A stretch of DNA of 64,000 bases from sequence record PX930852.1. One strand, written 5' to 3'. Below, piece by piece: positions 3,036 to 54,838 of this stretch (the stretch's first letter is position 1; every line of letters starts with the position of its first letter). Below the pieces are notes generated by a model. It was not told the origin of the DNA, did no database searches, and saw only the letters and a program-made list of their open reading frames with translations. The position numbers and the translations under genes were made by a program. This DNA comes from a phage.

Positions 3036-3061
3036 AAATGAAAAAGGCTCCCGAAGGAGCC
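3036..3061 (-). terminator. Rho-independent terminator (GGCTCC-CGAA-GGAGCC hairpin plus T-run on minus strand)
   Basis: Perfect 6-bp GC-rich stem with tetraloop, followed by a T-run on the minus strand. Confidence 0.55.
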
Positions 3062-3073
3062 TGTATCTTAACC

Positions 3074-4870: not shown

Positions 4871-5980
4871 TTAGATTTCACGTTTACGTTGAGAGATGAG
4901 TTCACCAGCAGTGCCAACGATGACATGCAAAGCTTCAGTCTTACCGTCCCATGCTTCCAGCACTTTACGTTGATTATCAACGATTGCTGCAACTTCATAA
5001 CGAGAGGAACGCATCTTCATATCGTTGTAATCAGTTGGAACAGATACAACATCTCGTGGATGTACGCGAACCTTCAGGATTGTATCACCTGAGAAGCAAC
5101 GAACATAATCCCAAGCACCAACATGAAGACCTTGAGAGCAAGTTACGTTACGGTTATTATCAACCATCCAACGTGGCATTTCTACAATGTTACCCAAATC
5201 ATTAGGCACTTTGTAGGTGTGAGAGTCAACCAGCTTGCCTTCACGAGTAGAGACTTTCTTCCAACCAATGATGTAGCCTTCTTCATCAATTTCAACATCA
5301 AGGTGAGATACAAATCCCCAAAGTTGTTCTACAGAATCTTTAGATGGGTTTTCCATCAGTTTTTCGAAGAACATCACAAGGCGTTCAAAGCCTTTGTCTC
5401 CAGTCTTCATCATGTGAAGAATACGGTCAACCAGAGTAGAACGCATCTCAACAGCACCGTAGAATAGCTTGTCGCCTTTGATTGTGATAGCACCCTGAGT
5501 GAAGTTTTCGATAGACTTACGAATGTTCATCAGTTCAAATGCTTTCTTGAACTCACCTTTCACAACATGAACTACAATCTCTTGATAGTTCGGATGAGTA
5601 GACTCAACAATTTCAGATTCTGAACCATAAGTCATAATTACAGAATCACCAGTAATCATGTACTCAATCTTGTCATCTTTCTGCATAGCTTCGTGCAGTT
5701 TATTTACTGGAGCTTTCTGTACAGCGTCTTTAACTACCTTTTCAACTGGTTTTCCAGCTTGCTTCTTAAAGGTCTTAGCAACTTGTTTCAAAGTCTTCGT
5801 AGCTGGTGTAGAAGTTGCCTTCTTATTCCCTTTTAAGGTTGCTTCATGACGCTCTACAGCACGACCGACTGAACGGGTTGAAGTGTTAAATTTCTGTGCA
5901 ATAGCTGTTTTGGTCAGCTTACCTTCTTTAACCAGTTTGTAAATTTCTGCGTCAATCTGTGCTTTAGTTTTAGTAGTCAT
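4871..5980 (-). CDS. rIIB-like protein (tentative), N-terminal HTH-like region
   Basis: Lies immediately downstream of the rIIA-like gene in the same orientation; size in the rIIB range; no diagnostic motif recognised. Confidence 0.35.
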   Translation of the reverse strand: MTTKTKAQIDAEIYKLVKEGKLTKTAIAQKFNTSTRSVGRAVERHEATLKGNKKATSTPATKTLKQVAKTFKKQAGKPVEKVVKDAVQKAPVNKLHEAMQKDDKIEYMITGDSVIMTYGSESEIVESTHPNYQEIVVHVVKGEFKKAFELMNIRKSIENFTQGAITIKGDKLFYGAVEMRSTLVDRILHMMKTGDKGFERLVMFFEKLMENPSKDSVEQLWGFVSHLDVEIDEEGYIIGWKKVSTREGKLVDSHTYKVPNDLGNIVEMPRWMVDNNRNVTCSQGLHVGAWDYVRCFSGDTILKVRVHPRDVVSVPTDYNDMKMRSSRYEVAAIVDNQRKVLEAWDGKTEALHVIVGTAGELISQRKREI

Positions 5981-6025: not shown

Positions 6026-6055
6026 TTCTAAGGGGCTTTGAAGCCCCTTGTCAAA
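6026..6055 (-). promoter_or_regulatory. Candidate sigma70-type promoter with a hairpin in the spacer (TTGACA-N18-TAGAAT on minus strand)
   Basis: Minus strand reads TTGACAaggggcttcaaagccccTTAGAAT upstream of the 4871..5980 gene; the hairpin may instead be a terminator for rIIA. Confidence 0.3.
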
Positions 6056-6059
6056 CACT

Positions 6060-8426
6060 TTAATCGTAAACTGTAGTTCCTTCTGGAACACACTTCACAT
6101 CAAAACCTAAGAACTTACTCACTTCGATGGGTGACACTTTATTCCAATCTAAATGGGAAAGCAAGAAGTTTTCTTGTTTTCTTTTTGAAAGGTAGTTTGT
6201 CACCTTAATAACCATACGGTCACCAGCTTTCTTAATTTTCTTGTAAAGCTTTGTATCGTTGTCAAGACAATCTTTCAAAGTTTTCAACACACTAATAGTG
6301 TAAGTGTATGCAAATGGTGCAGCAACATACTGGATTTTACCAAACATTGCCTCTACAGCCTCTTCATTACCTTCTAGGAAGATAGTTTTGTTTGTATCCC
6401 GTGAATAGCAATAGCCACGAGAAATCTTCCTGTTATTGAACGTAAAGTTTCTGGCAATAATCCAACTGCTTGTAAGGTCAAGGACACCATTCATATAGAT
6501 ACGTGTCATATACCTGTTATGATTAATCCAATGAACATCAGTTAAGCTATCGTTCAAGAGTTTCTCATCTACTTCAATCCAGTCTTCTGGTATCTTTTTC
6601 CAATTTGCTTTTCGGAAAACATAGACTGTCTTCCCTGTAACATTAGCAACTGACTTGGCTACATCTTCTGGAGATGAGCAAAAACATTCGCCATCAACTG
6701 TGTCACCAACTGCCTTAATGTAAAGCTGAGGCTCTTCAATTGTATCAAAGTCTTCTGAAACCTCTTTATAGGAAGCTACACCTTCTGCTGGAACAGCTTT
6801 CCAGAGTTTTACAACACCTCTTACAGCTTCTTTACGCTGGTAATGGTGCTCCTTATCAGACATTTTCACAATCTTTAACAAGCTTTTATCAAGTTTGTGT
6901 AGATTGATTAAATCATCTAACTCTTTTTCAGTCGAGAATACAAACACAATGCCATTATATCTGTGAAACAGACTGGACTCACTGGCGTAGTCTCGACATG
7001 CACCACGCAGAATCTGATTGCGGCCTACAGTCTTCTCAGTACCGTTTTTATTGCGACGGTCATTAATAACAAACAAAAACTGTTCAATTTGACTTTTACG
7101 CATTGCACCAAAGATATTGAACATACTTGCCTCTTGAGTGTAGGATAGTGCTGTTGCACGAATCTTACTCTCTAAAGAGTTAAACTTGACATAAGCAACT
7201 GGGTCATAAAGATAATCTACTTTAGGGATATTGTTCCCGTTCCTATCAACCTTAATATTACCTTTACCGTCACGTTCGTAAATGACTGAGCCGTCTTCTG
7301 CGTAGATAATTCCACGACGAATGTTTAGCAATTCTTCTTCCAGAGAATCAAGCTTAACGCCACCCCACTCTAGCTTTGGACACACAGCATTAAACATCTC
7401 TCGTGAGTTCAAACGTAACTCAGCATAAGCCTGTGCAGCATCCATGAGTGTAGGTTGGCTATTAACTTTCTTGATAACATCCTTTGTAATGGCTTCAGTT
7501 ATCTTTTTAGTAGCCTCAATGATAACATTTTTTGTCGTGTCATTCATCTGCAATGCTTCACGAGAAGCTGCAATAGCAACTGAACCAATAGGCATGTAGA
7601 TGTTTACAAGGTCTACGCTCCTACGGAAAAACTCTGGCAAGACTTTGAAGAAATCATCACCAAGTAACGCTTCCATGTTCACTGGATAGGCAATGTTACC
7701 CATCACCACATTAAACTCTGTCCTGTTATCACTAGAACGCCAGCTGTGCTTATGAATCATGGCATCATAAACACCTTCTTCACGGGCAATTACGTTCATA
7801 TCTGCTAATACATCGTCGTACTCAATATTACTTTCTGGTTTTACAGTGAAGTATGAGTACACATTCCCAGCTTCTTCAAAGAACTTTGAGATACGGTGGT
7901 CAGCAACTGCCACACGTACAGCTAAACCATTAGGTTCTTTTGTTTGGTTAGTTGTCAGCTTAGTTACTTGAGGGATACCATTCTCAAGATAAACAGAGTA
8001 CTTATTAACAACACCGTCAACATAACTAGATACTGTGAATGACTGAGCAATTGCAAATGGTGACTTTGAGCCGATACCCATTGCACCAATGTAGTCATTA
8101 GAGTCATTCTTCGTAGAAGCTCCATAGTTTAGGTACAAACTCATAACTTTATCATGAGTCAATCCAGTTCCAAAATCACGAACTTCGAAGTAAGGCTCAA
8201 AACGAGTAGGTAAATGCACATGGAATGGGATGTTCTCTTTTCCAGCTTCTTTCTGAGCATCTACTGCGTTACATGACAGTTCACGAATCACTGCCCTTTC
8301 TTTAAAGGTATATACACCAGAACTCAAAAGGCTGAACATCTCAGGTGTCATTGTAATCTGTGCTTGAGACGTCTCTAAAGAAGTTGAACTCTTAATCACT
8401 TCTGCGTGGTCATTTACCATGCGCAT
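6060..8426 (-). CDS. rIIA-like protein with N-terminal GHKL (histidine-kinase-like) ATPase fold
   Basis: RELSCNAVDAQKE (N-box), RDFGTGL (G1) and GAMGIGSKSPFA (G2) motifs; ~790 aa; followed by rIIB-sized gene. Confidence 0.55.
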   Translation of the reverse strand: MRMVNDHAEVIKSSTSLETSQAQITMTPEMFSLLSSGVYTFKERAVIRELSCNAVDAQKEAGKENIPFHVHLPTRFEPYFEVRDFGTGLTHDKVMSLYLNYGASTKNDSNDYIGAMGIGSKSPFAIAQSFTVSSYVDGVVNKYSVYLENGIPQVTKLTTNQTKEPNGLAVRVAVADHRISKFFEEAGNVYSYFTVKPESNIEYDDVLADMNVIAREEGVYDAMIHKHSWRSSDNRTEFNVVMGNIAYPVNMEALLGDDFFKVLPEFFRRSVDLVNIYMPIGSVAIAASREALQMNDTTKNVIIEATKKITEAITKDVIKKVNSQPTLMDAAQAYAELRLNSREMFNAVCPKLEWGGVKLDSLEEELLNIRRGIIYAEDGSVIYERDGKGNIKVDRNGNNIPKVDYLYDPVAYVKFNSLESKIRATALSYTQEASMFNIFGAMRKSQIEQFLFVINDRRNKNGTEKTVGRNQILRGACRDYASESSLFHRYNGIVFVFSTEKELDDLINLHKLDKSLLKIVKMSDKEHHYQRKEAVRGVVKLWKAVPAEGVASYKEVSEDFDTIEEPQLYIKAVGDTVDGECFCSSPEDVAKSVANVTGKTVYVFRKANWKKIPEDWIEVDEKLLNDSLTDVHWINHNRYMTRIYMNGVLDLTSSWIIARNFTFNNRKISRGYCYSRDTNKTIFLEGNEEAVEAMFGKIQYVAAPFAYTYTISVLKTLKDCLDNDTKLYKKIKKAGDRMVIKVTNYLSKRKQENFLLSHLDWNKVSPIEVSKFLGFDVKCVPEGTTVYD

Positions 8427-8612
8427 AATACTTTCCTCTCAGTTTACTGTTAAATTACTTATTAAACATTTTACCAGAACCACCACACATAGGGCAACAT
8501 CCTGCCCTTATGTACCCCTCTCCATTACAGTAGTCACATTTTTTGTGCTCTGCAAAGTACTTACAAAGGAGGTAAACAAATACTGCTACACTACCAAGTG
8601 ACAGTAAAATTT

Positions 8613-8948
8613 CTATCCAATATGCTTGCATGACTCACCTCTCATATTCTTGTAAAGGATAAAGCTTCTGTCATGGACGATACTTGTAGACACTGCAAAG
8701 TTACTTTCAAGCATCTGTTTGTTTGGATTGTAGAAGCTTTCTTTAAACTCGTCAAGTGCAAATTGGTGATTATCTGGAAGACCTTTTACACAGACCTTTA
8801 TTGTAATTGCTGCTGCGACCTTGCCAGTCAGTTCTTCTTTAGCTGCTACTAAAATTTTGTTAAGAAACTTATGGCCATCTTCAGGCTTCTTGATGTTCTC
8901 CCAACGTTCTTCTAAGACAATGTTGATGTTCATCTCTTTGATTTTCAT
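8613..8948 (-). CDS. Hypothetical protein
   Basis: 111-aa ORF. Confidence 0.4.
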   Translation of the reverse strand: MKIKEMNINIVLEERWENIKKPEDGHKFLNKILVAAKEELTGKVAAAITIKVCVKGLPDNHQFALDEFKESFYNPNKQMLESNFAVSTSIVHDRSFILYKNMRGESCKHIG

Positions 8949-8963
8949 AGTTTTCTCCAGAAA

Positions 8964-8986
8964 TTAAAAAGGCTCCCGTAGGAGCC
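8964..8986 (-). terminator. Rho-independent terminator (GGCTCC-CGTA-GGAGCC plus T-run)
   Basis: Perfect stem-loop followed by T-run on minus strand, downstream of the NAMPT-family gene. Confidence 0.55.
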
Positions 8987-9001
8987 TCTTATCATATACT
9001 T

Positions 9002-10783
9002 TTAAAGCTGCTTGTCAATATTATTTCGAATATCACCAAGAGTTGTGTAACCAAACTGCTCAGAGTCACTAAAGACTAAACGTAAAGCACAAGCTGGGTG
9101 GTCAAGTACATCTGCAAAACTCTGGAATCCATAGCCATCTACAGCTTTCAGCTTACCACCATCCCACATAGGTGCTACACCACCAAAGGCAGATTTCTTA
9201 ACACCACTATCTGTTTTAGGGTCTTTTGCAAGCATAATCTCTTTACCACCAATGCTTGCAAGAGTTGCTTTGACAGCAAATGCAAAGGTGTCACGAGTCA
9301 TGTACTGGTAAGTGTAAGAACCTACGCCAAACACTACGTTAGAGCTTGCAAAACCCATTTCATACAGACGCTTCAGGATTTCGTTTGCACGTTCCAGCGT
9401 GATAGAGTCACCATAGATAAGTCCGATATGCTCATCCAGTACCTTAAACCCTTTAGAGTTAATAGTTCCCCCAAAGATGTTGTACAGTGTCTTAATAGCT
9501 CCATCAATCTCAGCTACAGGACGTGTTACAACGTTTGCAGAACCAACCATATAAGCGTTTTTCAACAGCACTGTATCAGCAACTTCAAAGTCTTCTCTGT
9601 CAACAACCATTTCGTAGCCTTCTGACAGTAGCCATCCAGCAATACCATAATTGATGTTTTCAAGCTTCATGTTCAGAACAGCATTCAACATTGTGTCACT
9701 GGCTTCAAGCTTGCTTAAGTGTTCGTAATAAGCCTTTTTAGCACACTCTAAGTGGATTGCTTTATAACCTGTGACAATATGTACAGGGTCTCCAGAGTCA
9801 GGACGAATTACCAGTTTACCGTCACGTCCCATAATCTCTTTGCGAAGTGCTGGTAAGATTTCTGACACAGTTCTCCAGAAGTTATAAGTGTCTGAAACAA
9901 CACTTGCAATACCAGTTGGGTAAGTTTCTGTTAAGAAACGACGGAAGGTTTGTAACTCACCTTTAAAGCGTCTTTCTTCTTCAATCAACTCATTACCACC
10001 TTCCCAAGCGATGTTTGCACACATTACAGAGTGTTCAGTGGCTGGTACAGAACTACCAATATCAGAGATTGGGTAAGACTGTCCATAGATTCGTTTAGCC
10101 GTATACACAGCAGGGAAGCTATCAGTTCCTTTAAAGCTGGTTAAGTGGCCTACAGCGTTAAATGCGTCATCAGTAAAGCCGGACATACCACGCATAGCAA
10201 AGTCATGGCACTGATAAGGCAAATGCAAGTCGTTGTCACAAGTAAGGTCAGCCCACTTCTTACAGATACGTTTGTAGTGCAATGCAATAGTTGCAATGGT
10301 ACAAGCCTTCCAAATCTCAGCAGAGAAAGCATCTTCCAGATAACCTGCTACCCAATGGAAACCTGAAACAGTGTTCTGGAAAACAATCATCGGAACACGC
10401 ATAGGGACAACCGTGCCTTCTTCTACAGCGTATACTTCAACTGGTAGATAACCTAAGTCGTGAAGTGCTTCCCAATGCTCTCGACCGATAGCATCTTTGC
10501 CCAGAACACCATTCATGACTTCTAAGATTTCGTCAATTGCTTCTTTTTTGTCACGTTCAAAGAACGTAGCATTCCAGTGGTCTATCAAGTAATCTTTAAC
10601 AAAACGTTGAATACCAAAAGCGACTACACCATCAATTGCTAATGGGCTGTTAAACCATTTGTCGCTACGTGGTGTCAGGTTGAACATCAAATATTCTGTT
10701 GCACTAGGGTACTGGTAAACATGACCAGATTTGTAAGCATCTGCGTTTAAACCTGCTGGTACTGCATAAAGTGATTTAGTCAT
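9002..10783 (-). CDS. Nicotinamide phosphoribosyltransferase family protein (NAMPT/NadV-like; possibly nicotinamide ADP-ribose transferase, Namat, of a NARP1 pathway)
   Basis: DAYKSGHVYQYP, HDFAMRGMSGF..FKGTDS, SVPATEHSVM, SVVSDTYNFW, VIRPDSGDPV all match conserved NAMPT blocks. Confidence 0.85.
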   Translation of the reverse strand: MTKSLYAVPAGLNADAYKSGHVYQYPSATEYLMFNLTPRSDKWFNSPLAIDGVVAFGIQRFVKDYLIDHWNATFFERDKKEAIDEILEVMNGVLGKDAIGREHWEALHDLGYLPVEVYAVEEGTVVPMRVPMIVFQNTVSGFHWVAGYLEDAFSAEIWKACTIATIALHYKRICKKWADLTCDNDLHLPYQCHDFAMRGMSGFTDDAFNAVGHLTSFKGTDSFPAVYTAKRIYGQSYPISDIGSSVPATEHSVMCANIAWEGGNELIEEERRFKGELQTFRRFLTETYPTGIASVVSDTYNFWRTVSEILPALRKEIMGRDGKLVIRPDSGDPVHIVTGYKAIHLECAKKAYYEHLSKLEASDTMLNAVLNMKLENINYGIAGWLLSEGYEMVVDREDFEVADTVLLKNAYMVGSANVVTRPVAEIDGAIKTLYNIFGGTINSKGFKVLDEHIGLIYGDSITLERANEILKRLYEMGFASSNVVFGVGSYTYQYMTRDTFAFAVKATLASIGGKEIMLAKDPKTDSGVKKSAFGGVAPMWDGGKLKAVDGYGFQSFADVLDHPACALRLVFSDSEQFGYTTLGDIRNNIDKQL

Positions 10784-10828
10784 CTTTTAATCTCTCTCAA
10801 AATGGGGCTTTCAAGCCCCTATAAACTT

Positions 10829-11725
10829 TCAATCAAGGTTTGCTACAGTAACTTGACCATAATGTGTTAAGCCACGGTCTTTAGCTTCGCCTAAAGAGTT
10901 TGTAGTGTAAATATGGTCGATACCGTTGTCAAGAAGGTTTTCAACACCTTTAGAGAAGATACCATGTGTTACATAAAGCTCAACACGTTTTGCACCTGCT
11001 TCACGTAGGTGTTTAGCTGCCTCTACGAAGGTTCGACCACCATCACAGATATCATCAAGAATCATGACGGTTTTATCGGTCAAATCAACATCGTCAAGGA
11101 TTCGCATACCAGTGATTTCTCCAGTCTTAAGATTTCGCACCTTAGACATTGTGATATATGGTTTATCCACCTCTTTAGCAGTCTCTGCAATCTTCTTAGA
11201 AGCACCTGCATCTGGGGCTACTAAGTAATCAATTAGAGGGTCATTTGCATAGTGGACTGCAATCTCCTTTTGAGGAATACTTTGGAAGCAGTTAAACAGG
11301 TTATCTGGTACATAACTGTGAGGGTCAACTGCACAGACTGCACCAAATCCCATTGCATTTACCTGTTTAGCAAAAACCTTTAAAGCTGCTGCGTCGCCTT
11401 TAAACATGTGACGGTCGTATCGTGCATTTGGCAAGTAGTAAAAAATGACAGTCTTCAGGGCATAATCATGAGGAACTAAATCGTCAATTGCTTCTTTAGC
11501 CAGTGCCACAGCAAACAGTGTGTCTTTGTTATAACCCTTTACAATCATAACCACATTGTTAATAGATGATGCTGCATAAGCAGTAAAATCAACAAGCTCT
11601 TGTGAAAAGTGGCCACCAATCTCACCAGAAGGGAATTGGATGATGTTAAACTCTTCTTCATGAGTTCCTTTAGTCGGTGAATGAATTGTGACACGGATAG
11701 ATGTTTTCATAGTTTTCTCTCTCAA
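10829..11725 (-). CDS. Ribose-phosphate pyrophosphokinase family protein (Prs-like; possibly ADP-ribose pyrophosphokinase, Adps, of a NARP1 pathway)
   Basis: LVAPDAGASKKIAE and MILDDICDGGRTF match the Prs PRPP-binding/PRTase loops; directly upstream of the NAMPT-family gene. Confidence 0.8.
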   Translation of the reverse strand: MREKTMKTSIRVTIHSPTKGTHEEEFNIIQFPSGEIGGHFSQELVDFTAYAASSINNVVMIVKGYNKDTLFAVALAKEAIDDLVPHDYALKTVIFYYLPNARYDRHMFKGDAAALKVFAKQVNAMGFGAVCAVDPHSYVPDNLFNCFQSIPQKEIAVHYANDPLIDYLVAPDAGASKKIAETAKEVDKPYITMSKVRNLKTGEITGMRILDDVDLTDKTVMILDDICDGGRTFVEAAKHLREAGAKRVELYVTHGIFSKGVENLLDNGIDHIYTTNSLGEAKDRGLTHYGQVTVANLD

Positions 11726-12000
11726 TCAAAAGTTACGTTTGTTACTGCCATTGCAGATTTGCATTTTGCAGGGTCTACAACGTGATAAAGTACACTACAG
11801 TTACCTGTGCTGTCTGGTACAGGTTTAACCCATTGTTGCTTGACAGTTGGTTCGCCTAAGTCTTTGTAAGAACCATCTGTAAAGTTGTTTACCATCTCAA
11901 GTGCAATTGGCTCTGGAACATGACCACGTATCATGTACATTTCACAACCATTACCTCCTTCACTGACTAATGGTAAAATCTCCCACTTTTCTTTAGCCAT
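11722..12000 (-). CDS. Hypothetical protein
   Basis: 92-aa ORF overlapping neighbours by a few bp. Confidence 0.4.
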   Translation of the reverse strand: MAKEKWEILPLVSEGGNGCEMYMIRGHVPEPIALEMVNNFTDGSYKDLGEPTVKQQWVKPVPDSTGNCSVLYHVVDPAKCKSAMAVTNVTFD

Positions 12001-12508
12001 TATAAGTTGCCCTATAAACTGTCTCGAACTTCAACAGGAGAGATATTGCCAAATCTGTATAGTTGTTGTCAAGCACATCTGGCATATTATTTTTGATATA
12101 TTTCTCTTGCTCTTCATAGGTCATCTTAGGGATACTTAGGAGGCTATCTCCTTGCTTCTGGTTATCAGCTTTAGTTTGGATAAACCAGTTTGCACAGTGA
12201 TGTTCACCACCTTTTGTAACAGGTTTGTGATGACCTAATGTAAATGTTTGCTTACCCGTATACCTGCAAAGATTGTTCAGTGTTGCAATGGTGTTCTTCA
12301 CAACACACCATTCATACAGGTTATCTATTGTGTAGTGTGGGTAATAACGGACAAGTGCTCTTTCACGGAAGTTATCACGATTCCAAAGAACCATGTGATT
12401 AGAATTTGAAGGGTCATATTTGTGGGAGTCTATAAACTCTTGACGCTCATCAAAGCTGAGTCTTAGAACTGACATTGCAACCGAACGTTTCAGGTTTGAC
12501 AGATACAT
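11993..12508 (-). CDS. HNH-family endonuclease-like protein (possible homing endonuclease)
   Basis: GHHKPVTKGGEHHCANWFIQTKADNQ resembles HNH core (HH..P..GG...N....N). Confidence 0.4.
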   Translation of the reverse strand: MYLSNLKRSVAMSVLRLSFDERQEFIDSHKYDPSNSNHMVLWNRDNFRERALVRYYPHYTIDNLYEWCVVKNTIATLNNLCRYTGKQTFTLGHHKPVTKGGEHHCANWFIQTKADNQKQGDSLLSIPKMTYEEQEKYIKNNMPDVLDNNYTDLAISLLLKFETVYRATYNG

Positions 12509-12559
12509 TTTACCTCCAAAATAAAAAGGGAACCTTTACAGTCCCCTTATAGTATCTGT

Positions 12560-12880
12560 TTACTGAGCTACTTTCAAGATGCTTGTGAATGAAATCTCAC
12601 TCTCATCCATAAACTCTTTTGCTTCTCCAGTAACTTTCACAAAGTTATCTAGGCAGATAATCTTCTTATCTTTCTTGCTGTAGGTTAGCTTAACCTTTTC
12701 AATATCTTTCTTAGAACTTTTCTCTTCATTGAAGAGTTTTACAGCCTCTTTGAATGGGAGGTATGAGCCATCATCATCGCTAATAAAACCTGTACCACAA
12801 TAGTAGAAGTTGTATTCTTTAGCCATAAACTGGCACAGTACGAAAATCTGTAATTTACGAGTGTTATAAACTTTGCTCAT
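12560..12880 (-). CDS. Hypothetical protein
   Basis: 106-aa ORF. Confidence 0.4.
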   Translation of the reverse strand: MSKVYNTRKLQIFVLCQFMAKEYNFYYCGTGFISDDDGSYLPFKEAVKLFNEEKSSKKDIEKVKLTYSKKDKKIICLDNFVKVTGEAKEFMDESEISFTSILKVAQ

Positions 12881-12882
12881 GG

Positions 12883-13149
12883 TTATTTAACCTTCTTGTT
12901 ACGTTTACGGTTACGAGCTTTCTTAGCTGCTCGTTTAATAGCTGCTGCACCAGATTGGCGGTGGGCTTGTTTCTTACCACCTTTACCACGTCCTACGTAG
13001 ATGTAAGGCTGCTGTTCAATTTGGCTTGCAAGAACCTGTGCAACCGCTGAAGCATCTACACCGACCTGCTTTCCAGTCATAGAAACAATTGCTGCTGCTT
13101 TTTCCAGTGCCTTCAAGAATCCAGCTTTCATATTACCTAAAATTCCCAT
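12883..13149 (-). CDS. Small highly basic protein (possible nucleic-acid binding)
   Basis: C-terminal KRAAKKARNRKRNKKVK. Confidence 0.35.
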   Translation of the reverse strand: MGILGNMKAGFLKALEKAAAIVSMTGKQVGVDASAVAQVLASQIEQQPYIYVGRGKGGKKQAHRQSGAAAIKRAAKKARNRKRNKKVK

Positions 13150-13245
13150 TTTTAGTCTCTCTCATTAAAGTTTAATACAGAACTTATGAAGTTCTTCTTC
13201 AGTGATACCAATTGGAGTTATACCTTAGTCCATTTGCCAGAATAA

Positions 13246-13731
13246 TCACTCTGCTCTCCACTGACAATCACCTTGCCATCCGTACTCTTTTCTCCAGAGG
13301 TTTTGGTTATCTGAACCACGATACGGTTTAACTGTTGGTTTAGATGAATCATACTTACCATCAATCACCACGTCAACATATTTCATCACATCAAGGTGAA
13401 TTTTTTCATGTAACTGAAAACCTGTCCAGAGCCAGATAGATTTTTCTGGGTAAACGGTTTTAATACGTTTGCATATGTTGGTAACCTCTTGAATATTTCT
13501 ATCATCTAGAGGTTCTCCACCAAGTATTGACAGCCCACTGATGGCATTATCATCCATTAACTTAATGATGCCATAAAGGTTTGCATAAGTGAACTCTTTA
13601 CCAGCATTAAACTTCCAAGATTCCTTATTAAAGCAGCCTTCACAGTGATGCTTACAACCAGCTACGAAGAGGCTTACACGAACCCCTTCACCATTAGCTG
13701 TGTCAAATGGTCGAATCTCCATGTAATTCAT
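13246..13731 (-). CDS. nrdG: Anaerobic ribonucleotide reductase activating protein (radical SAM)
   Basis: CKHHCEGC (CxxxCxxC) radical-SAM cluster motif near N-terminus; size and position next to nrdD. Confidence 0.75.
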   Translation of the reverse strand: MNYMEIRPFDTANGEGVRVSLFVAGCKHHCEGCFNKESWKFNAGKEFTYANLYGIIKLMDDNAISGLSILGGEPLDDRNIQEVTNICKRIKTVYPEKSIWLWTGFQLHEKIHLDVMKYVDVVIDGKYDSSKPTVKPYRGSDNQNLWRKEYGWQGDCQWRAE

Positions 13732-13740
13732 CTAGTTACC

Positions 13741-14040
13741 TCACCAATACATATAAGTGTTCTTAGCAGCTTTCTTTGGAGACTTGCTATCAATGTCAAA
13801 GTCTTCATCTAAGAAGGATGTCTTAGAAAGCTGCCTGATTTGTGTTCTTGTAAGACGTTTAGTAGCCTTCTTAATCTCCCTACAAGGTTGACTTGTAAAG
13901 TCATAAGAGCCACCTTTTCTGGACATCATATCAGAATGGAAGTAGACATCTGAAGCATTTTCTCTGTTACGTACCTCATTTCTCCACTCATAGAGTCCAT
14001 GAACGTTCTTTAAACCTTTTCTTCGAATTGTTTTACTCAT
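13741..14040 (-). CDS. Hypothetical protein
   Basis: 99-aa ORF. Confidence 0.35.
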   Translation of the reverse strand: MSKTIRRKGLKNVHGLYEWRNEVRNRENASDVYFHSDMMSRKGGSYDFTSQPCREIKKATKRLTRTQIRQLSKTSFLDEDFDIDSKSPKKAAKNTYMYW

Positions 14041-14432
14041 TCAAACACCACCTGACAAGGAACCTGTTTAGTAATAAATTCTTCACAGTGTTCTTTAATG
14101 AAGTTTTGTAATGGTACACAATCTTGTGCGCAAGTCATTAGCATAATGTACTCTGGATTCATAATATTTTCAAGACTGTAGAAAACAACATCGTTAGATA
14201 GTTCATGACCGTCTTCTTCAGACCAAGTTCCAGTGACTACAGCTAATTTGTCAAGCAATTCATTAGGCAATGCTACACCATCTTCTACAGAATCACTTAG
14301 AACGTTGTCGCTGATGTACAATGTGAAGGTCGTATGGAATGTTGAATATCTTACGTGATTCTTTTCGCAAGAGCCACACTCTGAGGCATAATCTTTAATC
14401 CACTCTAACTGTTTTTTGTTCAACTTAATCAT
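14037..14432 (-). CDS. Hypothetical protein
   Basis: 131-aa ORF. Confidence 0.35.
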   Translation of the reverse strand: MIKLNKKQLEWIKDYASECGSCEKNHVRYSTFHTTFTLYISDNVLSDSVEDGVALPNELLDKLAVVTGTWSEEDGHELSNDVVFYSLENIMNPEYIMLMTCAQDCVPLQNFIKEHCEEFITKQVPCQVVFE

Positions 14433-14629: not shown

Positions 14630-14783
14630 TTTAACTTACCTTTCAATTCACAATAAGAGAGTCCTAAAAAGAACCCTAGTAAGACAGAACCTATGAACAA
14701 CCCAATAATACTCTCTGCCATATCTAACATCCAATAAAAAAGGTGATGTAAGCCTATCAAGACCCACATCACCTTGTCAAGTT

Positions 14784-18745: not shown

Positions 18746-18800
18746 GGTCTCTCCAAAGTTATTTTTAGAGGGTCTTTTACGACCCTCATAATTGTTAAAA

Positions 18801-38253: not shown

Positions 38254-38466
38254 ATGGCTCTTAAAAAGTTACATCCCAGAAGCGGTTATGGTAAGATAAT
38301 TGACGATACAGACGGATTTACAGTCTTTACAGTCATCTGTCAAGATGATTCACAGATTGAAAAGGCTCTTGACGATTATCTTAACGATGAACGTGAAAAG
38401 GTTAGGGCTACAAACATAGATTCATTGATTGACACTTCACGCAAACGGAAGAAGAAAGATGAATGA
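38254..38466 (+). CDS. Hypothetical protein
   Basis: 70-aa ORF. Confidence 0.35.
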   Translation: MALKKLHPRSGYGKIIDDTDGFTVFTVICQDDSQIEKALDDYLNDEREKVRATNIDSLIDTSRKRKKKDE

Positions 38467-38758
38467 GATTTTTGACCCTTATGCTCCACAAGATGATTGG
38501 GAGGCTGATAGAGAGGCTGAAATGGAGAGTTATATTTGTCCAATGGATGTAGATGAAATGAGAGATTTCGTTGCACATCGTTTTAAGAGAGAGATTAAAT
38601 CCAGAGGTCTTTCTCAAGAGCAAGTTGCTAAAATTTGTGGTATCTCTCAGGCTCGTGTATCCAACATAATCCATCTCACTGGTAACGTCTCCCTTGAGTA
38701 TATGTTGGAAGTATGTGAAAAATTTGGTGTTAATTTTAATTTAAGGTTGGCAGATTAA
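38459..38758 (+). CDS. Helix-turn-helix (XRE-like) DNA-binding protein
   Basis: LSQEQVAKICGISQARVSNI helix-turn-helix segment; start set at ATG 38459. Confidence 0.5.
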   Translation: MNEIFDPYAPQDDWEADREAEMESYICPMDVDEMRDFVAHRFKREIKSRGLSQEQVAKICGISQARVSNIIHLTGNVSLEYMLEVCEKFGVNFNLRLAD

Positions 38759-41354: not shown

Positions 41355-41385
41355 CAAAAAAGGCTCCCGTAAAAAGGAGCCTTAA
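41355..41385. terminator. Bidirectional rho-independent terminator between convergent gene blocks
   Basis: GGCTCC-CGTAAAAA-GGAGCC hairpin flanked by A-run upstream and T-rich sequence downstream. Confidence 0.55.
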
Positions 41386-42034: not shown

Positions 42035-44419
42035 TTAAGCAGTTCTTACCCAAGCCATTAACTTGTAGAACTGGTTAGTAACACTGAATGCTGAACCAGA
42101 ACCTGTACCACCAGTGTTACCACTAACTGTATGAGTGTGAGCACCGATACCTACAGAGTGGGTGTGAGCACCAGTGTTACTTGTAGTACCAGACCATGTG
42201 TGTGTATGGTTACCAGTTGTGTTAGTGTTAGGGAATTTGTTATCTTTTCTATCAAGCCAGTCAAGAGTTCTTGTCTTGCTGTTGCTAACAGTTGTGTAAC
42301 CATACTGAGCATCACCACCATTAACCAATAGCAGACCTAAGTGGTGAGCATGGTTACCCGCAGCACTTGTTGTACCACTTACAGTGTGGGTGTGACCACC
42401 AGTACTATTAGTGCTCTTCGTACCATAATCAAAAGATGAAGTGGTAGCAGAGAAGCTGTGAGTGTGTGATGGTAAGTTACCAACAGCTAATGTTACAGAA
42501 TCTGAACCACCAGTTGTAGCAACATCTGAACCGTTAGCTGCTGCGATTCTGATAGTTCTACCAACACCATTGTTCAGGTACGTCCAAGTTAACCCAGGCA
42601 ACGCTGTGTTAGGGTCAACATTACTGTTAAACCACGTTACAATGCCTACTGGATAGATTTTATTAAGGTCTGTAGAGTCACTAATTGCTGTTGCAATTTT
42701 CTGGTCAGTTTCAGCTTTAGTGTATGCACCAATATCTGAAGGGGTTGGTTTAAAATCAGTTGTATAAAGTTGTGCTTCTCCGGCATAGTCACCATTTTTG
42801 TCATAGGCATAGGTGAATGTTGCCAGACCGTTTGAACCGTATACAAAAGAGATACCCCTTGCATGTGCAGCAGACTTACTAGAGTGAGCAACATGAATTG
42901 CCAACTCTTTCAGACCACTAGTCACACTGTTGTTTCTGACAAAACCTGAATATCCAAGATTAAATGCTGAAGGGTTTTCAAGGTTATCTACAGAGACAGT
43001 CATTAAGGATTGATTTAATAACTGAGTTTTAACAAAATATCTAGCATCTAAGTTAGACCAATCAGAAGGTTGTACTTGACCAGTAATTGTTAGATTCTTA
43101 TTAGCCTTAATCGCTGAGGACATAAGAGTAATTTGAGTCCCAGAGTAGCTGTTGTTTAATGCTACATCAGTAGAATTTGTGCCACCCACACCTACCCACC
43201 ACCTAGATACATTCTGGGTATCAACACCACGGATATATTGTGGCTGTCCCTGTGTTAAGTTTCTTAATACTACGCCTTCATTATTTGATACAATAGTTTG
43301 CACATTCACAAATGTGTTAGCAACATTAAGTTTAGGTAGGTTACTCAAAGTTGCTGCTGGGATGTATCTAGAGTCAATGTTAGCCCAATCTGAAGGTTGA
43401 ACTTGACCAGTGATTCTGAAGTCCTTGTTTACTGCGACATGACCATTGTCAAGTCTAAGATAAGAACCATACACATAGTTGCTGATGAATACAGCAGGTG
43501 TATTATCACCATTTCCTACATACCACTTACCAGAACCATCATTAGCTTCGGCTTTAACGTATAGTGCAGCATTTGCTACAGTATTTTTCAACCTTAAAGC
43601 AGCACTGTCACTAATAATAAGTAGGTTTCTGCTAAACGTGTTAGTGCCAGTGAAATTGTTATTAGCAGCTAACTGTGCAAATCTCTGATTAGCAACTGTC
43701 TGTGTGAAGTATCTAGCATCTAAGTTAGAGAAGTCAGAAGGTTGGACTTGACCAGTGATTCTAAGTGTTTTACTGATAGCAGCAACACTAGACAGATTCA
43801 CTTCACAACCTGTCTTGTAGTTGTGGATAATAACATCATCATTCCCTGAACCATTACCTACATACCACCTATTAGCACCAGTGCTGTCCTGACCTCTAAT
43901 ATACAACGGTGAGTTCTCAGAAGAATTTTTTAGTCTAATAGCTTCGCCATTTGCTTGAATAACCTGTTGGAAGGTAAAGATGTTATTTGCAGCTAATCTT
44001 GAGTATCTTGCATCATTCTCTTCATTAGTTCTCATCCCAAGCTCATTAGGACTTGGCTTATTCAGGGTATGATAAACAGTTGCCGACCTTGAAGCATCTG
44101 CAATAGTTAGCTTAAGACCGTTTGCGTTAATTTTAAAAGTCTTTAAAACATCCCCAATATTAATCTCAGAAGAGCCTGTAGGGTCAAATACTGTCTTACC
44201 ACCATAAAGTAACTTAACAATACCTAAATCACCCGTCATGGTACTACCAATAATCTGAACAAATCTCTCAAGCTTAAAAGATGCTAAGAAATCTTGATAG
44301 GTCATTCGACGGTCTTCATCACCCAGCATTTCAGGTCTCTTTTTAACTCTGACATGAAGAAGGTCATCTGAACGGATTGTATCGATTGAGTTTAATTCAC
44401 TCAACTTGTAATCTGCCAT
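42035..44419 (-). CDS. Tail fibre protein with three internal repeats and His-rich C-terminal tip
   Basis: Triplicated ITGQVQPSD(W/F)(S/A)N(L/I)D(A/S)RY units; C-terminal GxHxH repeats (HTHS, HTHT, NHAHH); terminal WVRTA. Confidence 0.65.
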   Translation of the reverse strand: MADYKLSELNSIDTIRSDDLLHVRVKKRPEMLGDEDRRMTYQDFLASFKLERFVQIIGSTMTGDLGIVKLLYGGKTVFDPTGSSEINIGDVLKTFKINANGLKLTIADASRSATVYHTLNKPSPNELGMRTNEENDARYSRLAANNIFTFQQVIQANGEAIRLKNSSENSPLYIRGQDSTGANRWYVGNGSGNDDVIIHNYKTGCEVNLSSVAAISKTLRITGQVQPSDFSNLDARYFTQTVANQRFAQLAANNNFTGTNTFSRNLLIISDSAALRLKNTVANAALYVKAEANDGSGKWYVGNGDNTPAVFISNYVYGSYLRLDNGHVAVNKDFRITGQVQPSDWANIDSRYIPAATLSNLPKLNVANTFVNVQTIVSNNEGVVLRNLTQGQPQYIRGVDTQNVSRWWVGVGGTNSTDVALNNSYSGTQITLMSSAIKANKNLTITGQVQPSDWSNLDARYFVKTQLLNQSLMTVSVDNLENPSAFNLGYSGFVRNNSVTSGLKELAIHVAHSSKSAAHARGISFVYGSNGLATFTYAYDKNGDYAGEAQLYTTDFKPTPSDIGAYTKAETDQKIATAISDSTDLNKIYPVGIVTWFNSNVDPNTALPGLTWTYLNNGVGRTIRIAAANGSDVATTGGSDSVTLAVGNLPSHTHSFSATTSSFDYGTKSTNSTGGHTHTVSGTTSAAGNHAHHLGLLLVNGGDAQYGYTTVSNSKTRTLDWLDRKDNKFPNTNTTGNHTHTWSGTTSNTGAHTHSVGIGAHTHTVSGNTGGTGSGSAFSVTNQFYKLMAWVRTA

Positions 44420-44439
44420 TATAAATTTTCCTCTTAAAA

Positions 44440-44455
44440 GGGGCTATAAAGCCCC
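44440..44455 (-). promoter_or_regulatory. Conserved GGGGCT-loop-AGCCCC stem-loop between the two tail fibre genes
   Basis: Same stem as hairpins at 6031-6048 and 10804-10819, each just upstream of a gene start on the minus strand. Confidence 0.4.
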
Positions 44456-44465
44456 TGTAAAGAAA

Positions 44466-45653
44466 TTAAGCTGTTCTCTGCCATACATACAGCACGAATG
44501 ATGGCTGCTCAATGTTGAAAGCTTGTCCACCACCAACACTATTAGTGTTTCCACTATGTGTATGCTCAGAAGAAGAAACTGCCACAGTACCATTGTGTGT
44601 GTGTGAACCAATACCAACTGTATGGCTATGAGCACCAATACCCACCGTATGATTATGGTTACCAGTTGTGTTAGTGGTAACGCTAAAAGAGTGGGTGTGC
44701 GAACCAGCGACTTCACAGACAGCATCTGCTGAGTACCATGATTGGTCATTTCTTGTAGACCAAACCATTGCAGGTCTCTCCGATAGGCCACCACCCGCTT
44801 CATAGGTCAATCTGTGGTTGTGAGCACCAGCAGCACTTGTTGACCCACTACCAACGTGATTGTGGTTACCAGTTGTGTTAGTAGTCTTTGTTCCATAGTC
44901 AAAAGAGTTGGTAGTCTTAGTCCCATAGTCAAAAGCTGAAATTGAAACAGTTGCATTATGAGTGTGACCACCACCACTAAGAGATACAGAGTGTGAGTGT
45001 TGAGGCATGTTATTAACTGACAAAGTGACAGTCGAAGCACCAAATACAGAACCTGCTGGCCTTGTATCAGAGTCATAGCCAACCAATGCCCTACCTTTTG
45101 AAACCAACTCCCAAGTACCTCCACAAATTAAGTATGTAGAAGGGTTTGCAGAGTTCATAGAAAGATGGATAGTACCTACTGGATAAGAAGCCTGAACAGC
45201 CTTGTACAAGTTATTTACTGCTCTTGCTGTAGCATACTTATCTGCATCTTCATTATACAGGTTAGATGTTGTCCAGTTCTGAACATTACTTAAACCAACC
45301 TGTGCCTTAGTTGTATTGTGTGGGTTACTCTTGTCCTTGATATGTTGCTGAACAAGGTTATTAACCTCTTCTGAAGACATAATCTGTAGATTTGCTCTTG
45401 CCTCAGCTACATTAACAATATCTGATAAGTTATTTGCAGCGACTAACTGAAGAGCATTAATAACGTTATCTAAACCAATTTGTGTTTTAGTCACACCATG
45501 AGGGTTATTTCTTAGGCTTGAGTGTGGAGCAAGTAATTGCTCAAGAGTACATCTCTTATCCTCAATACCCTGCTTAAGATGGAAGATATCACTAAGGTCA
45601 ATTGGTAAGGCTGCTTGAGGCAAGGCACTAATTTGAATTTCACCTACCGCCAT
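44466..45653 (-). CDS. Tail fibre protein with His-rich (GxHxH) C-terminal tip
   Basis: Multiple HTH/NHNH/HSH repeats and terminal WQRTA homologous to the C-terminus of the 794-aa fibre. Confidence 0.65.
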   Translation of the reverse strand: MAVGEIQISALPQAALPIDLSDIFHLKQGIEDKRCTLEQLLAPHSSLRNNPHGVTKTQIGLDNVINALQLVAANNLSDIVNVAEARANLQIMSSEEVNNLVQQHIKDKSNPHNTTKAQVGLSNVQNWTTSNLYNEDADKYATARAVNNLYKAVQASYPVGTIHLSMNSANPSTYLICGGTWELVSKGRALVGYDSDTRPAGSVFGASTVTLSVNNMPQHSHSVSLSGGGHTHNATVSISAFDYGTKTTNSFDYGTKTTNTTGNHNHVGSGSTSAAGAHNHRLTYEAGGGLSERPAMVWSTRNDQSWYSADAVCEVAGSHTHSFSVTTNTTGNHNHTVGIGAHSHTVGIGSHTHNGTVAVSSSEHTHSGNTNSVGGGQAFNIEQPSFVLYVWQRTA

Positions 45654-45655
45654 TA

Positions 45656-53677
<8,022 letters not shown>

Positions 53678-53678
<1 letters not shown>

Positions 53679-53917
53679 TACATTTTTCCTGCTCTTCTAA
53701 GTTCGTTGTAAGCAATTTCCTCTTTATACGACCTCTGAATCTCAAGAAATTGTCTCAATGATAATAAATCAGAGAATGTCATAGCAAAGAGTTGGTCAAG
53801 TGTTTCTTTACACCCTTCCATACCATAAATAGCAAGCACAAATTTCATCTCGTCTGCTTCTTCATAGGTTGCCTCTACAGCAGCATCAGTTAGTGGTGTC
53901 TGTAGAGTGTTACCCAT
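53678..53917 (-). CDS. Tail assembly chaperone (second ORF of pair)
   Basis: Small acidic ORF immediately upstream of tape measure gene. Confidence 0.4.
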
Positions 53918-53919
53918 GT

Positions 53920-54318
53920 TTACTGAGAAGTTAGGCTTTTGAAAATGCTTGCTTCGAAAAAACTTCCGAAGTTTGCCTCCAGCGCAAATGCTAAGTAATC
54001 AATAAATTCACCATAGTTTGCTTGGAAGTATGTATCAATATTAAGTGGGAAGTCATCAACAGTTGCCCCTTGAAATAACAGGGTAGCCATTTCTTCAAGG
54101 TTAATTTCTTCAATTCTGTCAAAACAAGCTTCAACAAGTTCTTTAAATGGAACCATTGGAGCTTCTTTCTTACCCTTGTCAGTCAGACTTGACAGCATCT
54201 GTGCAAAAGTTGGAACAACAATTTTACCCAACTTCATAGACATCTTAATACCATCTCTTGCCCCAAGCAGAACGATATTTACTTTCTTACCATTAATTAC
54301 TCTAGATTCTGTTTTCAT
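53920..54318 (-). CDS. Tail assembly chaperone
   Basis: 132-aa ORF between tube and tape measure genes. Confidence 0.4.
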   Translation of the reverse strand: MKTESRVINGKKVNIVLLGARDGIKMSMKLGKIVVPTFAQMLSSLTDKGKKEAPMVPFKELVEACFDRIEEINLEEMATLLFQGATVDDFPLNIDTYFQANYGEFIDYLAFALEANFGSFFEASIFKSLTSQ

Positions 54319-54344
54319 TGTGATTCCTTAATACTTTTAAAAGA

Positions 54345-54380
54345 AACAAAAAAGGGGAAGACCTTTTAAAGTCTCCCCCT
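54345..54380 (-). terminator. Rho-independent terminator downstream of tail tube gene
   Basis: GGGGGAGAC..GGTCTTCCCC hairpin followed by a long T-run on the minus strand. Confidence 0.5.
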
Positions 54381-54391
54381 TATAGGATTTA

Positions 54392-54838
54392 TTAAACACT
54401 TGACGCTGGAATTGTAGAAGTGTAGTCTAGCTTCTCACAACCAAAAATCCAAGTTTTAGAGTTCTGGTCACGACCAAGTTCAATCTGCGGTAATTCCTGC
54501 AACCAAGCATTAATACCAGTTGCCAGAACAGAGCCTGATGGGTCGTAGATTACGAAGTTAGAAGAGATATCTTCTTCAAGTTCCATATTGTCTTGTTTAG
54601 CTTGAATTGCAGAAAGCATCTGGTTAGAGAGAGAAGTCTGCATTAACTCAATCTCAATAGTACCTGTCTTGTCTGCATTTCTTGTCAGAGCAACTTGACC
54701 ACCTGCACCAACAACTGGTGTCACAAGTGGTGATGTTCTCTGTAGACGCAAGAATGAATCTGGGGCAAAGCCTTCAATGGCAATACCATTCCAGCTACAT
54801 ACAACGTCTTTAGGGGAATATTGCTGATACATAGCCAT
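54392..54838 (-). CDS. Tail tube protein
   Basis: 148 aa directly downstream of the sheath-sized gene and followed by a strong terminator. Confidence 0.5.
   Translation of the reverse strand: MAMYQQYSPKDVVCSWNGIAIEGFAPDSFLRLQRTSPLVTPVVGAGGQVALTRNADKTGTIEIELMQTSLSNQMLSAIQAKQDNMELEEDISSNFVIYDPSGSVLATGINAWLQELPQIELGRDQNSKTWIFGCEKLDYTSTIPASSV

Follow-up and report, generated by a model that had tools for sequence, protein, structure and literature searches.

By their stem-loops and placement, the three GGGGCT-loop-AGCCCC hairpins of this phage are best described as the weak-tail end of its canonical terminator population, with the sequence of the stem and a U-tract that is short or missing as the sole differences. 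The chance that they act as RNA hairpins at cistron ends, by leaky termination or pausing and/or by blocking 3'-exonucleases, is considered slightly better than even. The window, which is the whole stretch of 64,000 nt analyzed here (PX930852.1), represents, by its sequence identity, a Felix O1-like phage of the genus Felixounavirus (Ounavirinae). Over 7 kb around sites 1 and 2 it shares 95-97% identity with many genomes of this genus, and the 121 nt surrounding site 1 match those of Escherichia phage vB_EcoM_ASO1A (MZ726791, hereafter ASO1A) at 100% identity.

The initial annotation had reported near-identical GGGGCT/AGCCCC hairpins at three named gene junctions. A search of the window for GGGGCT-N(2-8)-AGCCCC returned exactly these three matches, and none was obtained in 100 dinucleotide-preserving shuffles. 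The GGGGCT-N4-AGCCCC cores are located at 6032-6047 (site 1, between rIIA and rIIB), 10804-10819 (site 2, between the Prs-like and NAMPT-like genes) and 44440-44455 (site 3, between the proximal and distal tail-fibre genes), with the minus strand as sense strand throughout. When two mismatches were allowed, five matches were found versus 0.38 expected, the two additional near-matches not being hairpins. The stems extend to 8, 6 and 7 bp at 6030-6049, 10804-10819 and 44439-44456, and folding of the isolated hairpins of sites 1, 2 and 3 yielded -13.3, -11.5 and -12.9 kcal/mol (z-scores -3.5, -2.1 and -2.8). The flanking genes proved to be those named before, on the basis of Pfam domains for the Prs-like (Pribosyltran), the NAMPT-like (NAPRTase and NAMPT_N) and the two tail-fibre proteins (Gp10_C, gp37_trimer), and of homology to annotated Felixounavirus records for rIIA and rIIB. 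All three hairpins indeed lie between genes of the same strand, in minus-minus intergenic gaps of 79, 45 and 46 nt, and a comparison with related phages showed that they are conserved. For this comparison ~30 loci per site from IMG/VR were used together with two complete genomes, ASO1A and Kolesnikvirus SeKF_13. On the sense strand the order is always stop codon, 9-10 nt, hairpin, short tail (UUAGAAUA, AUUUUGAG and UUUUAAGA at sites 1, 2 and 3), SD and ATG. A distance of 20-40 nt to the downstream start, as first described, applies to sites 2 and 3 (20 nt from the core) but not to site 1 (~50 nt). The copies of the motif are confined to the ~5% of the genome that is intergenic and are always found shortly 3' of stop codons.

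The same geometry is shared by about ten other gaps of the window, each of which holds a GC-rich tetraloop hairpin followed by a clear U-run. These canonical terminators are positioned 2-17 nt past the stop (most 10-13 nt) and 17-33 nt before the next ATG, with 63 nt for the one after rIIB, and correspond to t2, t5, t64, t79, t104, t111, t116 and t124 of Felix O1. GGCTCC/GGAGCC terminators occur at 3045-3062, 8970-8987 and 41360-41383. It had been claimed that the GGGGCT hairpins are distinct from these. The stem differs, but the geometry is the same, with 9-11 nt from the stop and ~20 nt to the ATG, and by position they are not a separate class. Site 3 has already been published as a predicted terminator of Felix O1, t76 (PMC3185647). 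All three sites possess the stem-loop of a terminator, with -10 to -13 kcal/mol, a start 9-10 nt past the stop and an orientation on the sense strand. The difference lies in the tail. In the 8 nt past the extended stem there are 2, 4 and 3 U residues at sites 1, 2 and 3, compared to 4-7 in most canonical terminators, and none of the three sites has the at least 5 T in 8 nt that the scan required of a U-tract. A d'Aubenton-Carafa-type d-score, which is usable for ranking only, placed them at -22, -23 and +4 (site 3 thus borderline), with the canonical terminators at +1 to +44. Sites 1 and 3 are not called in the TransTermHP and WebGeSTer annotation of ASO1A. Because the U-tracts are short or absent, leaky termination or pausing and/or a block to 3'-to-5' exonucleases are the most likely activities, and an attenuator role, one of those suggested at the outset, fits the placement and the short U-tracts. 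As the U-tracts are also not conserved across genera, classical intrinsic termination is doubtful at sites 1 and 2, so that the explanation leans on the less specific role as stabilizer or pause site. A further U-poor hairpin, GAGGGUC-GUAAAA-GACCCUC at 18768-18787 on the minus strand, begins 13 nt past the nrdA stop. Its placement equals that of the three sites, and its tail, UAAAAAUAAC, is without a U-tract; by its different stem it is not a member of the GGGGCU group.

Two other roles were rejected. Termination of plus-strand (antisense) transcription does not fit the plus-strand tails GTCAAACA, TATAAACT and TGTAAAGA, which lack U-runs. Stimulation of stop-codon read-through or frameshifting was suggested by the spacing and by a spurious Rfam match to fiv_FSE, but in-frame stops occur within 3 codons.

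The site 3 hairpin (44439-44456, minus strand; sense RNA AGGGGCU-UUAU-AGCCCCU, 7 bp) begins 9 nt past the proximal tail-fibre stop (44466-44468), with 19 nt left between its end and the distal tail-fibre ATG (44417-44419). Its tail is UUUAAGAGG, and in Moogle-type phages UAUAAAG. The site is orthologous to t76, gggggctgtacagccctcttt, which is listed among the predicted Felix O1 terminators in Table 2 of Whichard et al. 2010 (PMC3185647); by RT-PCR, a late maximum is seen for gene 76 as well as gene 77 of Felix O1. In the Felix O1 clade the hairpin reads GGGGGCU...AGCCCUC, and the helix is kept by a G-U wobble that is possible on the sense strand only. This variant favours the sense strand. In MZ726791 the distal tail-fibre CDS (52264-54687 of ASO1A, corresponding to 42035-44419 of the window) is annotated from an upstream start, overlaps the previous gene and swallows site 3. 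The ATG 19-20 nt past the hairpin, preceded by the SD AAGAGG, is the likelier start.

Site 3 is also where translational control has to be considered. According to this explanation, the hairpin and adjacent pairing would mask or insulate the downstream SD, either coupling the downstream gene to upstream termination or shielding it from re-initiation. In the minimum-energy structure (RNAfold), UUUCUU at 44460-44465 (minus strand), directly after the stop codon, forms the 5' strand of a lower stem and is predicted to pair with AAGAGG at 44430-44435 (minus strand), the SD of the distal tail-fibre gene, which is thereby partly masked. A ribosome terminating at the upstream stop would open this pairing. 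The UUUCUU/AAGAGG pairing recurs in both Felixounavirus sequence variants, and each of the three hairpins is positioned between a stop codon and an SD. However, the lower stem is weak, adding only ~-3.6 kcal/mol and retaining 3 pairs in the centroid structure, and its conservation in Moogle-type phages is not clear. No pairing with the SD is predicted for sites 1 and 2, and the SD of site 1 is ~35 nt away. Translational coupling by SD masking, as brought up in the initial annotation, is thus predicted at one site of three; it is plausible only at site 3, and as a general explanation it is unlikely.

Evidence from site 2 bears on the same question. This hairpin (10804-10819, minus strand; sense RNA GGGGCU-UGAA-AGCCCC, 6 bp) starts 9 nt past the Prs stop (10829-10831), ends 20 nt before the NAMPT ATG (10781-10783) and is followed by AUUUUGAGAGAG, within which GAGAGAG forms the SD. 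It is conserved down to 74-76% NAMPT identity, and in two loci a bulged 7-bp helix is kept after two substitutions. It bears no annotation in the GenBank records of the relatives examined. In six of the 28 loci, and also in ASO1A, Felix O1 and SeKF_13, the hairpin is cleanly replaced by a gene for an HNH homing endonuclease while the SD is kept. This indicates that the site 2 hairpin is dispensable for NAMPT expression. It argues against translational control by the hairpin, as NAMPT is presumably expressed from genomes with the HNH gene in the hairpin's place, and such a loss would fit a modulatory rather than an essential role. The HNH gene swaps out exactly the part of the spacer that bears the hairpin (10784-10828 of the window; the gene lies at 84665-85181 in ASO1A and at 82988-83548 in SeKF_13). 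Other prs-NAMPT loci with an HNH gene are L037, L040, L043, L053 and L056.

The site 1 hairpin (6030-6049, minus strand; sense RNA AAGGGGCU-UCAA-AGCCCCUU, 8 bp) begins 10 nt past the stop of rIIA (6060-6062), and 49 nt separate its end from the ATG of rIIB (5978-5980). Its tail, UUAGAAUAU, is without a U-tract. The hairpin is kept in 29 of 30 rIIB loci; in two loci the arm variant AACCCC creates a C-A mismatch in the sense RNA and a G-T wobble on the opposite strand. Across the Ounavirinae the rIIA-rIIB junction carries a hairpin with one of three stems and never a U-tract. Besides GGGGCU/AGCCCC these are GGGCUG-GAAA-CAGCCC in Kolesnikvirus and AGUGGUCU-AAUA-AGGCCACU in a lineage of two loci (L031/L120), both of which start 7-10 nt past the rIIA stop. 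RNAalifold predicted 7 pairs for site 1 across genera, of which 5 are altered on both sides, although these changes may represent replacements rather than stepwise covariation; the count was taken from longer stretches, as MAFFT shifted the register of 20-mers. Base pairs thus seem to be retained at site 1 through compensatory changes across genera, as would be expected of a selected RNA structure. Since three stems are used and five of seven pairs have changed on both sides, the hairpin as such is probably under selection at this junction.

Site 1 is further distinguished by promoter hexamers that directly flank its stem, as the initial annotation had noticed. On the minus strand, the -35-like TTGACA (6054-6049) directly precedes the stem and the -10-like TAGAAT (6030-6025) directly follows it; they agree with the consensus in 11 of 12 positions, and the 18-nt spacer between them is the hairpin itself. 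In the window, seven sites reach at least 11 of 12 matches versus 2.1 expected, and three of the seven share TAGAAT. The in-silico annotation of MZ726791 lists site 1 as a promoter and not as a terminator. TTGAC(A/T) and TA(G/A)AAT with a spacer of 17 or 18 nt are present in all 29 Felixouna-, Moogle- and Susp-type loci, among which the sequence downstream of the -10 hexamer is completely diverged. In hexamers, spacing and conservation despite diverging flanks, site 1 thus has the attributes of a putative sigma-70 promoter. Both hexamers are absent from the Kolesnikvirus rIIA-rIIB junction, and because they are restricted to the Felixouna-, Moogle- and Susp-type group, the hairpin appears to be older than its promoter. 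As the promoter wraps the hairpin, rIIB transcripts that begin there would lack it, whereas rIIA transcripts reading through would carry it. RT-PCR of Felix O1 placed the maximum of rIIB at 10 min and that of rIIA at 25 min after infection. This timing is compatible with, and hints at, a separate rIIB start or separate control of rIIA and rIIB, being suggestive but not proof; the co-transcription of flanking genes stated in the initial annotation can only be presumed.

Promoters were rejected for sites 2 and 3, where TTTATA and TTTACA abut the stems and no acceptable -10 hexamer was found at 16-18 nt. A TTGACA-16-TATGAT pair with 11 of 12 matches, which the ASO1A record lists as a promoter, is located at 8991-9018 on the minus strand of the window and ends right before the canonical terminator hairpin that follows NAMPT (8967-8990). 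Transcripts from this promoter-like site would have their 5' end within the 5' arm and so evade the terminator. Across genera the -10-like hexamer is kept there as TATGAT or TATTAT.

The position of a 16-bp perfect palindrome exactly within the site 1 promoter spacer could also point to an operator, at which a phage DNA-binding protein, for example of the Cro/C1-type HTH family, would regulate the promoter at the DNA level. The window encodes a Cro/C1-type HTH_3 protein of 99 aa (38459-38758, plus strand), and within three genera the sequence of the stem, and not pairing alone, is invariant. On the other hand, promoter hexamers are missing at sites 2 and 3, the Felix O1-clade variant of site 3 breaks the DNA symmetry while keeping an RNA G-U pair, and unrelated stems are found at site 1 in other genera. 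Stem invariance is likewise found in the canonical terminators, and an operator is very improbable. No other obvious transcription regulator of the phage is encoded in the window.

At the three sites, Felixouna-, Moogle- and Susp-type phages show no change of the GGGGCT/AGCCCC stem down to 74-80% protein identity, and the loops vary almost from genome to genome at all of them. Nucleotide diversity (pi) amounts to 0.28-0.37 in the loops, 0-0.03 in the arms and ~0.1 in the flanks at sites 1 and 3; as flank pi is inflated by register shifts from single-base indels, most of all at site 2, only the contrast between loop, arm and flank was used. Over the same distances, the stems of the GGCTCC terminators that follow rIIB and NAMPT vary just as little. 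The invariance of the GGGGCT stem is therefore not special, and it was rejected as a sign of sequence-specific recognition. Constancy of the stem within a genus is moreover uninformative with regard to compensatory pairing.

 At sites 1 and 3 as well as 2, and in a canonical terminator, loops occur in both orientations among close relatives (window positions 6038-6041, 10810-10813, 44446-44449 and 8977-8980; loci L002-L087). The reverse-complement pairs are TCAA/TTGA, TGAA/TTCA, TAAA/TTTA, TTAT/ATAA, TGAT/ATCA and, in the canonical terminator, TACG/CGTA; seven such pairs were counted versus 0.42 expected under uniform 4-mers. The site 1 loop requires at least 7 state changes, mostly flips between TCAA and TTGA, on a tree of 23 genomes whose nearest neighbours differ by 2-5% in the flanks, and loop diversity is about three times that of the flanks. 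Small hairpin-loop inversions in chloroplast genomes are a comparable case. The flips look like template-switch inversion at inverted repeats, a mechanism described in PMC7202029, which would also offer a non-selective route to perfectly complementary arms. Template switching during replication can preserve perfect palindromes even where the function of the RNA is not selected, and an invariant stem by itself is therefore weak evidence.

A multi-copy "house" terminator stem was also observed in each genus, namely GGCTCC-(TTCG/TACG)-GGAGCC in Felixounavirus and GGACTC-TTCG-GAGTCC, with nine copies, in SeKF_13 (L088/L089). These house stems suggest homogenization or concerted evolution of terminators within a genome. 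The hairpins might accordingly be regarded as largely neutral palindromes, kept perfect and copied by template switching or recombination, a view that would account for the recurrent loop flips, the genus-specific house stems and the loss of site 2. It is contradicted by the restriction of all copies to the small intergenic fraction of the genome, always shortly past stop codons, and by the persistence of the rIIA-rIIB hairpin through a complete turnover of its stem. The strict placement after stops is not explained if palindromes are maintained by mutation alone, and neutrality is considered unlikely.

Outside the window, ASO1A harbors further GGGGC-type copies at 14676, 22979 (= t38) and 12568. 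At 14676-14727, at the end of a leftward early unit, a fourth hairpin, GGGGCT-AAAT-AGCCCC, lies 13 nt upstream of t23 (GCCCCT-ATTTAA-AGGGGC-TTTTTT); the arms of the two are mutually complementary, and alternative pairings are possible. Beyond the left end of the window, at ~8047-14416 of ASO1A, the early region contains a module in about five identical copies and one variant. It consists of an A/T-rich upstream element, TTGAC(A/T) hexamers and a 5' hairpin, caacGGGGAGGGaatgaCCTTCCCCactaaataaa, ~32-35 nt before each ATG. Some of these hairpins are WebGeSTer "terminators" directly past promoters, and they are more likely 5'-UTR stem-loops.

Processing by endoribonucleases was another role proposed for the three hairpins. 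RNase III could cut the stem, or RNase E, anchored by the hairpin, the adjacent AU-rich single strand. The R sites of T7 and other classical RNase III substrates comprise ~20 bp or about two helical turns. The stems here have only 6-8 bp, and neither internal loops nor longer helices appear in the minimum-energy or centroid folds, which makes RNase III sites unlikely. RNase E commonly acts where a hairpin precedes an AU-rich stretch, and AU-rich single-stranded segments, AUUUUGAG and UUUUAAGAG, are present 3' of the hairpins; cleavage by RNase E is possible and would merge with the stabilizer half of the favoured explanation. Rfam 15 yielded no match in the window at the gathering score, and permissive searches around the sites gave chance-level results only (E of at least 0.19). 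Endonucleolytic processing is altogether doubtful, with a low probability like that of neutrality.

The hairpins are thus most readily understood as leaky terminators or pause sites and/or exonuclease blocks, which would sit within transcription units of several genes, at the 3' ends of the rIIA, prs and proximal tail-fibre cistrons. Once termination or cleavage has occurred, a block to exonucleases would stabilize the upstream cistron. Either way, the amount of upstream relative to downstream message would be adjusted, without an end to the operon. At site 1 the flanking hexamers would add a start for rIIB. Literature searches for a transcriptome or transcript-end map of Felixounavirus or Felix O1 found none. 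A bolder alternative is that the GGGGCU hairpins are not terminators but a phage-specific cis-element, whose stem is kept and spread by template switching and which is read by a dedicated factor or acts as a DNA/RNA structural switch to coordinate expression. It would include the rIIB promoter with its hairpin or cruciform spacer. Spread by template switching is suggested by the recurrent loop flips and the genus-specific house stems; as a whole this alternative is decidedly unlikely.

Salmonella typing, biocontrol and therapy all make use of Felix O1-like phages, and the Felix O1 genome paper asks how transcription gets past the many internal terminators. Telling strong terminators from U-poor cistron-end hairpins, one of them wrapped by a promoter, provides concrete test sites for the tuning of expression inside operons. 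Annotation gains as well, with site 2 unannotated so far and site 3 of ASO1A hidden within an over-extended CDS. In the repeated inversion of the loops, phage genomes offer a clean natural case of mutation driven by palindromes.

Several known systems resemble these hairpins. Stable tetraloop hairpins of the C(UUCG)G and GNRA types are said to have been described in intercistronic regions of T4 by Tuerk et al. in 1988. T4 is likewise a virulent phage of E. coli, and its hairpins are also short, very stable and repeated in intergenic regions. Moogle-, Susp- and Kolesnik-type phages share GNRA loops with T4, namely GAAA or GCAA at sites 1 and 2, whereas the loops of the window and of other Felixounaviruses (UCAA, UGAA, UUAU) are neither UNCG nor GNRA. 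As the loops are hypervariable, loop-specific stability does not seem to be selected. REP elements, reportedly described by Newbury et al. in 1987, are intercistronic mRNA-stabilizing hairpins in E. coli operons. They too are multi-copy palindromes past stops inside operons, lack U-tracts and can block 3' exonucleases. However, there is no sequence relation, the phage hairpins measure 16-20 nt compared to ~35 nt, and they are phage-specific. To our knowledge, loop inversion by template switching has not previously been described for phage terminators. The reverse-complement loops on unchanged stems are the product expected of intramolecular template switching, as in quasipalindrome mutagenesis (PMC7202029); unlike the functional models, this likeness explains how the elements mutate and not what they do. 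The closest relatives are the intrinsic terminators of Felix O1-like phages (PMC3185647; TransTermHP/WebGeSTer annotation of MZ726791), which share the GC-rich stem of 6-8 bp, the 4-nt loop, the sense-strand orientation and the position ~10 nt past the stop, with ~20 nt remaining to the next gene; among them, t38 and t23 of PMC3185647 have related stems of the GGGGC type. Sites 1 and 2 differ from them in having no U-tract and sub-threshold scores and in being on no published or annotated terminator list, and site 1 in addition is overlapped by promoter hexamers. The hairpins are thus real, conserved, non-random and of a known kind, in part already published (t76) or annotated (the rIIB promoter), and they leave current concepts unchanged.
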